19,305 bases of DNA from a virus (IMGVR_UViG_3300029828_000038:1-19305); one strand, 5' to 3'. Counted from the first letter of the stretch, positions 828 through 7,000 are shown. The notes: generated by a model from the letters alone, not told the origin. Made by a program: numbers and translations.

Positions 828-1426
828 ATACGGATAACATTATTTCTGAAATTAAGAAATAATAGAAATATATACATATGTTTACGAATATTAACGTGAA
901 TTTCCATTGAAAAGAGAACAGGCATCATTAGTATTAATTTGAGTTCCGAGGGTATACCCCGAAGAACCAGTGCCGACTTAGTTCAGCAATCAGAGCAGGT
1001 GGCTTGTAACATCAGGTCACCAGTTCGATTTCTCAGTCGGTACCGTATGCGGGTCGATTCCCGCTGTTCCAGAAGTAACGAGATAGGTAGTTTTGGGCGC
1101 TGGCACATTAAATATGTGGGATGTTTCACCCTCTCTCCTTACCGCATCCAGCCTGTAATGAAAGTTATTTGTTACGGTACCAGTGCCATCTTTTTACAAT
1201 AGCGGAATGGTGCATTATTGGTAGATATTTTGTATTTCATGGCAGGGTCGGTGATGCATCATTCCGGTGTTGTAAATAACACCGCCGGGGTGTTCCTCAG
1301 TGCGGGGGTGGTTCAAGAGTCGGTTTAGCGGGAAGCCACAGTATCCATACAGTATGGAGTACTTCGGGAGGCACCCGACGCCCTGGTTTTACTACAATAA
1401 AAATAACTTATCTTCTGCATTGACCA

Positions 1427-1452
1427 GCCGCCCCCACCGGGCGGTTTTTTTA
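1427..1452 (+). terminator. Intrinsic terminator-like hairpin plus T-tract
   Basis: Stem CCGCCC (1428-1433) / GGGCGG (1439-1444) with loop CCACC, followed by T7 (1445-1451). No coding sequence overlaps it. Confidence 0.55.
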
Positions 1453-1536
1453 TTCTGAATTCCCCAAAAAAAGAAAACACGGACACTGATAATGCCCGTG
1501 TGGCAATGCCATGTAAGTCAGCGATGAATATGGCGC

Positions 1537-1570
1537 AAAAAAAAAGCGCGGCTGTCGGATTAAAGCCGCG
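1537..1570 (-). terminator. Intrinsic terminator-like hairpin plus U-tract on the minus strand
   Basis: A9 at 1537-1545 on the + strand (U9 following the hairpin on the minus strand). Stem CGCGGCT (1547-1553) / AGCCGCG (1564-1570) with a 10-nt loop. Convergent with the + strand terminator at 1427..1452. Confidence 0.4.
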
Positions 1571-1829
1571 GGACAAAGTCCGTGAAGAAGAATAAGCATC
1601 GGTCTCCTCCAGGAGACGAGTTGATATTACTAAGCTTTAAAAATGGTTTAAATCCCCGTATTAACCTTAATTTCAGATAAGCTTTATTTCATTTCTTCGC
1701 GCCACGCCCGGCGCATATCAAAAAGCCACAGAGCCTTTCAGGGGTGAGCTTACGGGATGGTCAGTGTGACTTTCTCTGTGGGCTGGTCACCCCGGGGCGC
1801 AGGCTCACCCACTAAAAGGAAAAGTCACG

Positions 1830-2255
1830 ATGTTTGGTATTTTCAAAAAGAAAACCCGCAAGGCCATTACTGAAGTAAAGAAAATGGAGAACCGCGACGC
1901 AGTGGAGGCGACCGTCTGGGGTGCGTATTCCATCGCATTCGCCGACGACACCTGTGACGCGAAAGAAGTCGCGGTACTGGAGAAAACCATTGCAGCACTT
2001 CCTGCCTTTGCGCCGTTCTCCGGTGAGATTGCACAAATGAGTGCAAATATCCGCGCCCGTTATGAAGCGTCGCCGCGCTCTGCCAATGCTGAAGCCCTTC
2101 GTCAGCTGGCTGACGTGGCAGGTACTGATGACGCAGTTAATGTGCTGTGCCTGTGTCTGGATATCGCTGACCAGGATGGCATTGGTCCGGATGAAGAAGC
2201 ACAACTCAAGAAAATTGCTCAGGCACTGCAGTTGCCGCTGGAGCAGTACCTGTGA
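1830..2255 (+). CDS. TerB-like (tellurite-resistance TerB family) protein, phage cargo gene
   Basis: ATG at 1830 preceded by AAAGGAAAAG. The 141-aa product has the TerB-type acidic motif DIADQDGIGPDEEAQLKKIAQAL and predicted helical character. It sits between terminator-like hairpins, upstream of the lysis genes. Confidence 0.7.
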   Translation: MFGIFKKKTRKAITEVKKMENRDAVEATVWGAYSIAFADDTCDAKEVAVLEKTIAALPAFAPFSGEIAQMSANIRARYEASPRSANAEALRQLADVAGTDDAVNVLCLCLDIADQDGIGPDEEAQLKKIAQALQLPLEQYL

Positions 2256-5243: not shown

Positions 5244-7000
5244 TGGCAAAAGTGGCTGACGGGATCCGCTACGCCGAACGTGTTGTTGCAGGAGAAATTG
5301 TCGCTGGCGAATTTGTCCGTCTGGCCTGCCAGCGTTTTCTTGATGATCTGAAGTACGGCGAAGAGCGGGGGATTTATTTCAGTGAACCCCGTGCGCAGCA
5401 CATCCTGAATTTCTACAAATTTGTGCCCCATGTAAAAGGGGCGCTGGCAGGCCAGCCCATTGAACTGATGGACTGGCATGTATTTATTCTCATTAATATT
5501 TTTGGTTTTGTCATTCCGCTGGTCAATGAAGAGACCAGGGAAGTTGTTATGCGCAGCGATGGCAGCGGACGTCCGGTGATGGTGCGCCGGTTCCGGACGG
5601 CGTACAACGAAGTCGCCCGTAAAAACGCAAAATCAACCCTGTCATCGGGTATCGGTCTGTATATGACGGGGGCAGATGGTGAAGGCGGGGCTGAGGTGTA
5701 TTCAGCCGCAACCACGCGTGACCAGGCCAGAATCGTGTTTGAAGACGCCAAAAATATGGTCAGAAAAGCCCGGTCGACACTCGGGCGATTGTTTGATTTC
5801 AACAAGCTGGCGATTTACCAGGAGCAGAGCGCATCAAAATTTGAACCGCTTTCTTCGGATGCAAACAACCTGGATGGTCTGAACATCCACTGCGCCATTA
5901 TTGATGAGCTGCATGCACATAAAACCCGCGACGTGTGGGACGTTCTGGAAACGGCAACTGGTGCCCGTCTGCAGTCCCTGTTATTTGGTATCACCACGGC
6001 TGGCTTTAACAAGGAAGGGATTTGTTACGAGCAACGCGATTACGCCATCAAGGTATTGCGTGGCTATAACAGTGACGTGGAGGGCGCGGTAAAAGACGAC
6101 TCTTACTTTGCGATCATTTACACGCTCGATGAGGGAGATGATCCGTTTGATGAAACGGTCTGGCAGAAAGCGAATCCCGGCCTGGGCATCTGTAAACGCT
6201 GGGATGATTTGCGTCGTCTGGCGAAAAAAGCGAAGGAGCAGGTTTCTGCGCGGGTGAATTTTTTCACGAAACACATGAATGTGTGGGTCACTGCCGAATC
6301 TGCCTGGATGGACATGATTAAGTGGGAGAAGTGCGAATACATTGCTCCACAGCATGAGCTGAAAACATATCCCATGTGGGTCGGTGTAGACCTTGCTCAT
6401 AAGATTGATATCTGTGCGGCGGCAAAACTCTGGCGAACCGATAACGGACATGTTCATGCTGATTTTAAATTCTGGCTCCCGGAAGGACGGCTGGAGCGGT
6501 GCTCGCGGCAGCAGGCAGAACTTTACCGGAAATGGGCGGAGATGGATAAGCTCATCCTGACGGATGGTGATGTTATCGATCATGCTCAGATAAAAAGTGA
6601 CTTACTGGAATGGATTGGTGGTGAAAACCTGAGGGAGCTGGGATTTGACCCGTGGAGTGCAATGCAGTTCAGTCTGGCTCTGGCTGAAGAAGGGATACCG
6701 CTGGTGGAAGTTCCGCAGACGGTCCGCAATCTGTCAGAGGCTATGAAGGAAACGGAATCACTGGTCTATGCCGGGCGTTTTCACCACAGCAATCACCCGG
6801 TCATGAACTGGATGATGTCTAACGTTACGGTAAAACCGGACAAAAACGACAATATCTTCCCGAACAAATCCACGCCTGAAGCCAAAATCGACGGTCCTGT
6901 TGCGATGTTTACAGCAATGAGCCGGATGCTGGTCAATGGCGGTGAACCGGAGCCGGATCTGTCTGAGCATCTGGTCAGCGTTGGTATTCGCTCGCTTTAA
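5243..7000 (+). CDS. Terminase large subunit (Terminase_1-like)
   Basis: 585 aa, size and position typical. ATPase-like N-terminal region and nuclease-like C-terminal region by pattern. Coupled to the small subunit. Confidence 0.9.

Follow-up and report, generated by a model that had tools for sequence, protein, structure and literature searches.

A stretch of viral DNA of 19,305 nucleotides (nt; IMGVR_UViG_3300029828_000038:1-19305, the whole of which we call the window) carries a non-coding interval, positions 1196-1652, that very probably consists of two convergent small-RNA (sRNA) genes occupying the late-region "moron" slot of a lambdoid prophage. This reading draws directly on the anatomy of the interval, its conservation, its covariation, its strand, the homology that links the rightward gene (module A) with STnc100, and a 3′ end mapped in vivo at the terminator of the Escherichia coli K-12 paralogue of the leftward gene (module B). 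An initial annotation had described one hairpin on each strand, facing one another, as the mark of a transcriptional boundary. We find no boundary between transcription units in the usual sense, the terminators being instead the likely 3′ ends of the two sRNA genes. The elements are listed below in window coordinates; A2 is our alignment of module B, which holds 55 distinct sequences.

1196..1452, + strand: module A, a structured RNA of ~255 nt, read as a divergent STnc100-family sRNA
1196-1273, + strand: long 5′ hairpin of module A
1287-1384, + strand: multi-stem core of module A, with the CGGGAGGCACCCG hairpin
1387-1425, + strand: A/U-rich linker of module A
1426..1452, + strand: intrinsic terminator ending module A; stem 1426-1433/1439-1446, 5-nt loop, T7 at 1445-1451
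1465..1501, minus strand: T2, distal intrinsic terminator; hairpin 1501-1477 of 11 bp, tail UUUCUUUUUUU at 1476-1466
1502..1511, minus strand: H3, small hairpin immediately 5′ of T2; helix 4 of A2, 98.2% paired
1537..1570, minus strand: T1, proximal intrinsic terminator with U9; stem 1570-1564/1553-1547 of 7 bp, 10-nt loop
1571..1581, minus strand: H2, small hairpin GGACUUUGUCC; invariant in all 55 A2 sequences and in the core copy described below
1582..1601, minus strand: U/C-rich single-stranded stretch CGAUGCUUAUUCUUCUUCAC, the candidate seed; unpaired in all folds
1602..1617, minus strand: H1, 5′ hairpin; helix 1 of A2, 97.8% paired
1624..1652, minus strand: promoter recognized by its conservation; -35 TTTAAA at 1652-1647, 17-nt spacer, -10 TAATAT at 1629-1624

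All three terminators consist of a G+C-rich hairpin followed by a U-tract on the transcribed strand, as the definition of an intrinsic terminator has it, and each of the three hairpins recurs in dozens of distinct sequences from homologous prophages. Both hairpins of the initial annotation, with T7 on the + strand and U9 on the minus strand, were recovered at 1426-1452 and 1537-1570, and their reported spacing of ~85 nt is accurate. The + terminator stem has six G-C pairs plus a G·U and an A-U pair (-14.3 kcal/mol, z = -3.4, 0/200 shuffles as stable), and it is the top-ranked terminator-like site of the whole window in a consensus scan. Across homologues its CCGCC/GGCGG stem is invariant, its loop is variable and a run of T7-T9 is found in all. 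T1, whose U-tract appears on the + strand as A9 at 1537-1545, is of lower stability (-11.3 kcal/mol, z = -2.1, 5/200 shuffles as stable) and is absent from the consensus scan because its loop exceeds 8 nt. It corresponds to helix 3 of A2, where compensatory changes from C-G to U-A and from U-A to C-G occur. The second minus-strand terminator, T2, had been overlooked in the initial annotation and is stronger than T1 (-14.5 kcal/mol, z = -6.2). As helix 5 of A2 it is 95.7% paired, with two pairs changed on both sides, and its U·G wobbles would be C·A on the + strand. Since T2 lies only ~14 nt from the T-run of the + terminator, the tightest convergent pair is 1426-1452 (+) and 1465-1501 (minus). 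In our reading, T2 gives the minus-strand sRNA a back-up 3′ end or the end of its long form.

Two exact-pattern scans of IMG/VR yielded 112 homologous loci (L004-L115), to which three annotated E. coli and phage loci and the window were added, for a total of 94 distinct 700-nt extracts. The non-coding kilobase resolves into module A (~1185-1455, + strand) and module B (~1456-1690). Conservation is high in module A, which has the + terminator as its end in every case. Module B comes and goes as a unit between loci that are otherwise collinear; it is missing, for example, from the second copy in phage SerU-LTIIb and from L085, L109 and L115. Among the IMG/VR loci, a doubled STnc100-like core (L057, 7025-7146 and 8023-8149) and a longer (~275-nt) module B variant were noted, L010 (1866-1988) being listed with L057; this suggests duplication within the slot.

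The structure of module B is well supported by comparison. All five A2 helices hold, with 96.3% of 1590 cells paired as against 35-50% when the 3′ partners were slid by 1-3 columns; eight pairs show changes on both sides, and the covariation score was matched by 0/500 shuffles. In H1, a U-A pair is replaced by C-G in 21 sequences, 34 sequences carry a U·G, and H3 shows two fully compensatory pairs (GGAC/GUCC vs. UGGC/GCCA). H3 and T2 thereby repeat the hairpin-plus-terminator handle formed by H2 and T1 in the first unit. Because of an excess of wobble pairs, module B was assigned to the minus strand: 91 cells form a G·U in the minus-strand RNA alone and 19 in the plus-strand RNA alone, and pairing is 96.3% on the minus strand vs. 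91.8% on the plus strand. The initial annotation had supposed that transcription enters this region from the right. No support for this was found, as module B has, ~80 nt rightward of the U9 terminator, its own conserved promoter, in which TTTAAAC and TA(A/G)TAT are invariant in all 55 sequences. The start of the minus-strand RNA is predicted at ~1617-1622. From there the RNA has the layout of an Hfq-type sRNA, that is, CUUAUUCUUCUUCA, then GGACUUUGUCC, the terminator hairpin and U9. Within the candidate seed, ACUUAU and UCUUCA are conserved and the middle varies among prophage alleles. By its design, the H2 plus T1 unit resembles a double-hairpin/poly-U 3′ handle of the Hfq type. The Hfq-binding module of enterobacterial sRNAs that Ishikawa and colleagues are said to have defined in 2012 comprises a U-rich stretch, a single or double hairpin and a 3′ poly-U tail, the seed being a separate single strand. 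From the window-type allele, with its long U-tract at T1, we would expect an sRNA-like short form of ~80-85 nt and a read-through form of ~150 nt.

Module B also has a counterpart in the E. coli core genome. Blastn searches with module B found a full copy in 297/5426 complete E. coli genomes, and its 46-nt handle in 5350/5426 (~99%), at one conserved place in the yodB-serU intergenic region (in locus L121, the core copy lies at ~1495-1640 on the minus strand). This core paralogue keeps the promoter block (TTTAAA-17-TATGAT) and the handle, the latter with 89% identity; its 5′ hairpin and single strand (GAAAUUCAACAACUCUUGGAAAUU) differ from those of the prophage, the candidate seed being AAUUCAACAACUCUUGG in the core copy and CUUAUUCUUCUUCA in the prophage. 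Conservation of the core single strand extends over E. coli, Shigella and a genome of an Escherichia cryptic clade; in E. albertii the 5′ part is different again. A survey of 185,579 species representatives placed the handle in Escherichia and Shigella only.

In MG1655 (NC_000913.3; L134), the paralogue locus spans 2,043,059-2,043,181 on the + strand, with the RNA predicted from ~2,043,094 to 2,043,181, and NC_000913.3 carries no annotation at the predicted RNA. A published Term-seq table lists an "orphan" 3′ end at exactly 2,043,181 (+), together with the sequence of the paralogue (Adams et al., 2021; PMC7815308, Supplementary file 1). The end occurs in two of three Term-seq data sets, which by the order of the sheets are probably LB at an optical density of 2.0 and M63 (PMC7815308). 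It coincides in position and strand with our prediction, at the U-tract of the K-12 paralogue of the U9 terminator. The 3′-end mapping proposed in the initial annotation has thus been carried out on the paralogue, and there a T1-type terminator works in the predicted orientation in vivo.

The minus-strand family has apparently not been named before. Its RNA had no Rfam match at E ≤ 10 in the searched interval 800-1900, AsxR and AgvB included, and our literature search found no paper with the module B handle sequence and no report for serU, yodB and sRNA combined. In the parts consulted, two comparative-genomics papers on Shiga toxin-producing E. coli mention yodB with serU and no sRNA there, "yodB" was not found in the supplementary tables of the RIL-seq study of enteropathogenic E. 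coli (EPEC), and the main text of Bar et al. (2021) does not mention the yodB-serU locus. We offer, tentatively and as a possibility that we hold to be less probable than its contrary, that the minus-strand RNA represents an undescribed, Escherichia-restricted sRNA family with a fixed promoter and double-hairpin/poly-U handle and with interchangeable 5′ seeds. The core member would be the one between yodB and serU and the others would reside in the lambdoid prophage slot, where the prophage alleles could compete with, mimic or extend the core regulon via the common handle. If so, phages would have performed a "seed swap" on a host sRNA scaffold or, in reverse, a phage sRNA would have been domesticated beside a phage attachment tRNA. 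This is the main lead of the analysis: a candidate undescribed sRNA family whose core paralogue is expressed yet unannotated in K-12. Because the scaffold is present in K-12 as an unannotated, expressed locus beside serU, the function of the leftward RNA can be studied there.

The core paralogue also bears on whether the minus-strand RNA acts in cis. Antisense RNAs of the cis type are known from phages, with lambda OOP and P22 sar as examples. Over 80-150 nt, the minus-strand RNA is an exact complement of any late transcript, at a point ~230 nt upstream of terB, and it could pair with read-through transcripts of the late leader upstream of terB and the holin genes, leading to cleavage or termination and serving as a safety lock on lysis. 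Yet the K-12 paralogue retains promoter and handle at a locus without an overlapping sense gene, module B is dispensable in collinear prophages, and the 3′ handle is a typical trans-acting Hfq module. That module B acts mainly in cis, as an antisense RNA, thus appears unlikely, even though cis and trans roles are not mutually exclusive.

We turn to module A, the rightward of the two sRNA genes. In a comparison with the Rfam STnc100 family (RF02076), module A gave a full-length match at 1259-1455 (21.7 bits, E = 0.027) and shares with it the CGGGAGGCACCCG hairpin and the closing stem. The relationship was tested reciprocally with a covariance model, R1, built solely on window-type sequences (A3, an alignment of 22 diverse homologues of the module A core). 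R1 finds the true STnc100 genes of Sakai Sp4 (L119; 34.4 bits, E 3e-9), of EPEC E2348/69 PP5 (L117; 32.9 bits, E 1e-8) and of Sakai Sp5 (L118; 23 bits, E 3e-5), at the same coordinates as the Rfam STnc100 annotation, so that the common core fold is recovered in both directions. PasD2 and the Sp3 copy were not among its hits at E ≤ 1. Pairing in the core reaches 98.7%, as against 45-54% in slid controls; five of its pairs are compensatory, G·U pairs on the + strand are numerous, and the whole 260-nt RNA has a fold z of -4.0. In position, too, module A agrees with the family: it lies on the late-gene strand, in the moron slot that follows Q and the tRNAs, and ends in an intrinsic terminator. Module A is a divergent relative of STnc100/EcOnc27/PasD, though by threshold not a member of the Rfam family. 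A short variant of ~187-191 nt, for example in L007, L009, L019 and L036, matches no Rfam family at the gathering score.

An RNA gene at this position affects annotation. In E. coli ETEC1732 (L002, 3003-3401), RefSeq has a 132-aa "hypothetical protein" (WP_064226585.1) that spans the STnc100-like RNA. The counterpart of this frame in the window is two 52-aa plus-strand open reading frames (ORFs) only, and the coding call is probably spurious because the frame is not conserved. More generally, the terminators are better read as the ends of sRNA genes, and ORFs called across them, as in ETEC1732, are probably spurious.

Convergent sRNA genes have a precedent in this slot. Tree et al. reported that the moron site downstream of the Q-antiterminated pR′ "carried convergent sRNA genes," for example EcOnc27 and EcOnc02 (AsxR) 3′ of stx2B in Sp5, with an equal layout in Sp3, 4, 9, 10, 11, 15, and 17 (Tree et al., 2014; PMC4104026). 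EcOnc27 was found as RNAs of ~235/247 nt, the 247-nt form being destabilized without Hfq (PMC4104026, Table S2), and its northern probe is the reverse complement of the 3′ part of STnc100. In our analysis of Sp5 (L118), STnc100 (6423-6628, +; 207.7 bits) faces AsxR (6682-6630, minus; 88.1 bits), with terminators 1-2 nt apart. In EPEC, PasD (STnc100-like, +) and PasA/PasC (minus, just before the holin gene) lie in analogous places, and PasD is Hfq-associated with RIL-seq targets (Pearl Mizrahi et al., 2021; PMC8550237); PasD1 and PasD2 are also cited to Zhu, Shabalina & Storz (2026; bioRxiv 10.64898/2026.05.13.724894). Because the same organization has been described for lambdoid prophage moron sites, the window pair can be taken as an instance of a published architecture with new members, of which the minus-strand RNA is, as far as we could determine, itself unpublished.

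A close parallel is the Sp5 STnc100/AsxR pair. Both pairs occupy a moron site that follows Q/pR′ and the tRNAs and precedes the lysis genes, and in each a long structured + sRNA with an intrinsic terminator stands opposite a short minus-strand sRNA that has a promoter and a terminator of its own. They differ in that the minus-strand partner of the window is unrelated in sequence to AsxR/AgvB/EcOnc03, is longer (~80-85 vs. 51-60 nt) and has two tandem terminators, that the + partner, distantly related to STnc100, has an additional 5′ hairpin of ~78 nt, and that the moron cargo is terB rather than stx. With STnc100 (RF02076) and PasD1/PasD2, module A shares the outer closing stem, the internal hairpins (that of CGGGAGGCACCCG among them), a linker that varies and an intrinsic terminator, as well as strand, prophage position and reciprocal covariance-model matches, whereas its linker and seed sequence are different. 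Module B resembles the anti-sRNAs AgvB and AsxR (RF02702, RF02703) in being the minus-strand partner in the slot, convergent with an STnc100-type gene and with its own promoter, and in combining a conserved 3′ handle with a variable 5′ single strand; its 5′ part varies modestly among prophage alleles and is another sequence altogether in the copies of the core genome and of E. albertii. Unlike for those anti-sRNAs, no core sRNA was found that module B would mimic or sponge. PasA and PasC of EPEC E2348/69 are likewise on the minus strand relative to the late genes and just upstream of the holin gene, and their loci are frequently linked to TerB, RusA and tRNA genes, as in the window; however, in PasA the seed and the stem of the terminator overlap, whereas the candidate seed of the window is a free single strand. 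The PasA locus in prophage PP2 of E2348/69 (L116, 5266-5480) has two tandem minus-strand hairpin/poly-U units between an esterase gene and the holin gene, mirroring the window. Finally, lambda tR′/6S RNA with Q offers a parallel for the + terminator, judged by position, in that an intrinsic terminator lies inside the late unit and would have to be read through by Q-modified polymerase. Here, though, the terminator is not proximal to pR′ but >2 kb downstream of the Q slot, after the methylase and tRNAs, and it ends a separate conserved RNA gene. In pathogenic E. coli, prophage sRNAs of this slot (AsxR, AgvB, PasD, STnc100) reshape both virulence and host regulation. Prophages that carry terB instead of stx and have a different sRNA pair in the slot would extend this catalogue and mark the slot as a general cassette site for convergent sRNAs.

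The hairpins might, alternatively, serve insulation only, shielding the lysis cassette from the tRNA/moron promoter (+ strand) and the tRNA region from stray leftward transcription (minus strand), with the released RNAs being functionless. A conserved promoter at 907-934 does point toward the lysis genes, a further + terminator stands before the holin gene at 2456-2471, and neither RNA has a known target. However, insulation needs no conserved dedicated promoter 80 nt upstream of the minus-strand terminator, no conserved single strand, no three extra conserved helices with compensatory changes, and no conserved structured body of 190 nt upstream of the + terminator. In addition, the homologues of the + RNA, EcOnc27 and PasD, are Hfq-associated sRNAs (PMC4104026), PasD having RIL-seq targets (PMC8550237). 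We regard insulation as the sole role of these hairpins as quite improbable. That module B is instead a small mRNA, for example for a type I toxin, is scarcely credible: a 49-aa ORF (1599..1450) has GGAGGA 6 nt upstream of its ATG and a hydrophobic N-terminus (MLILLHGL...), the Shine-Dalgarno-like GGAGG being sequestered inside the 5′ hairpin, but the ATG is ATA in most of the 55 homologues, the ORF crosses the U9 terminator, where a U-run of 7-9 shifts the frame, and no alternative ORF is conserved, the other allele having an ATG ORF of seven codons only.

Several observations nevertheless weigh against two convergent sRNA genes. The score of module A is far below the STnc100 gathering score (21.7 vs. 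47 bits), and homologues L001 and L003 likewise fell short of E = 0.1 in the Rfam STnc100 test. A conserved promoter was sought directly upstream of module A (1196) and none was found. The minus-strand promoter fits only 8/12 consensus positions, which is why it went unlisted in the consensus scan. In sequence, module B does not resemble known partners: the conserved ~42-nt 3′ region of AsxR/AgvB (GUAUCUCAUGCnnUUGCCCGAACCCAnUCGGGC-Un) does not occur in it, and no Rfam hit at E ≤ 10 lies within 800-1900; the 3′ end of PasA/PasC (GCCAGCACC...GGUGCUGGC-Un) was unmatched in blastn at word size 7 between window positions 830-1830 and L116 and L117; and blastn gave no similarity to the AsxR locus, to the EcOnc08/21 or EcOnc32 loci at the same word size or, in a separate comparison, to PasB. 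The likeness of module B to known sRNAs is an analogy of position and design, and for this prophage expression, Hfq dependence and targets are what we infer. The commonest allele, moreover, keeps the T1 hairpin with a U-tract degraded to CUACUUUU (A2 columns 121-132, window 1537-1546). The window-type allele, with U7-U9 at T1, accounts for 21/55 sequences, and the U-tract of T2 is long in all A2 alleles. Since its U-tract is degraded in the commonest allele, T1 would not be a terminator everywhere, and T2 must be the real end there; the short RNA form may probably be specific to the window-type allele.

The genes around the two sRNA genes identify the setting. The window covers the late region of an E. 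coli lambdoid prophage and shows 97% identity to NZ_CP087564.1 across 98% of its length. In that prophage, the gene order is RusA, a Q-like gene, a hypothetical small ORF, the methylase, tRNA, a gap, TerB, DUF3927, two holins and an M15 endolysin; in the window, DUF3927 is followed by the two holins and M15 endolysin and then by terminase, portal, head and tail genes. A non-coding gap of ~1 kb separates the methylase and tRNA remnants from the terB-holin block, and this gap is the moron slot, between the Q/methylase/tRNA block and terB-DUF3927-holin-endolysin. The remaining features of the window are as follows.

54-827: DNA methylase gene
907..934, + strand: sigma-70-like promoter TTGAAA-16-TAGTAT upstream of the tRNA remnants, from the consensus scan
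972-1042, + strand: degenerate tRNA-Thr remnant, with point changes relative to the intact homologue
~1049-1072, + strand: tRNA-Gly remnant, with an internal deletion of ~48 nt relative to the intact homologue
1096..1195, + strand: structured element with a long-range closing stem, then UCUUUUU, just upstream of module A; fold -31.9 kcal/mol, z = -3.3
1830-2255: gene for a TerB-family protein
2252-2404: DUF3927 gene

Upstream of the methylase in the near-identical prophage, the Q slot is occupied by a DUF1133 protein (L123, 5538-6080), which scores 26.3 bits with Pfam Phage_antitermQ against a cut-off of 26; because this threshold is just reached, DUF1133 is supported as a Q-type antiterminator family. 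Homologous prophages have intact tRNA-Thr and tRNA-Gly genes directly after the methylase, and alignment shows them to be decayed in the window. ARAGORN found no tRNA in the window, and the Rfam tRNA score was 19.1 bits, below the gathering score of 29. The 907-934 promoter has counterparts upstream of the tRNAs in L001, L002, and L003, where a TTGAAA/TTGAGA-N16-17-TAnTAT block is kept, and it is the likely source of a constitutive rightward transcription that the + terminators would have to stop in the lysogen. The closing stem of the 1096-1195 element co-varies among homologues (TGGCAC/GTGCCA vs. CAGCACTG/CAGTGCTG); the element might act as the first of the terminators met by the tRNA transcript, or might itself be another small RNA. 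A strong + strand terminator lies at 2456-2480 (2456-2471 in the scan), GGGCCGCTGGTGGCCC then TTTTTTATTT, directly upstream of the holin start.

A working model for the two sRNA genes can be drawn from this arrangement. The leftward RNA would start at its own promoter (1624-1652) and would run through the 5′ hairpin and the U/C-rich presumed seed into the small hairpin, the terminator hairpin and U9; polymerases passing the U9 terminator would stop at 1465-1501, giving the ~150-nt form. The rightward RNA may come from the transcript of the tRNA promoter by processing. In the lysogen, leftward transcription would end at T1 or T2 and the rightward RNA at 1426-1452, each terminator making the poly-U 3′ end of an sRNA, an Hfq site, and at the same time blocking polymerase entry into the converging gene. 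The + terminator would further halt constitutive transcription from the tRNA promoter before terB and the lysis genes, acting together with the 1096-1195 element and the 2456-2471 terminator. Upon induction, Q-modified polymerase from pR′ would read through all + terminators, and the minus-strand terminators would not be terminators in the + sense for it. The initial annotation had placed the + element as a terminator that late-gene antitermination must override. Its position inside the late unit holds. Because a Q-type gene lies upstream of the methylase in the near-identical prophage, Q-modified RNA polymerase would have to read through the + terminator, and read-through by Q is the part of that proposal that we infer.

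A few candidates in the window were set aside, and one further structure was noted. TACAAT at 1195-1200 was rejected as a module A promoter, as it is TACGGC in homologues. The two 52-aa plus-strand ORFs and, on the minus strand, the 49-aa (1599..1450) and an 83-aa ORF were rejected as coding, since neither start codon nor frame is conserved. At gathering thresholds, Rfam matched no family in the whole window; weak matches other than STnc100 (miRNA, L20-leader, tpke11, isrK and similar) were treated as chance, only STnc100 having been confirmed reciprocally. A long-range inverted repeat, GGGTGAGC...GCTCACCC, is present in the leader of terB (1740-1815, +).

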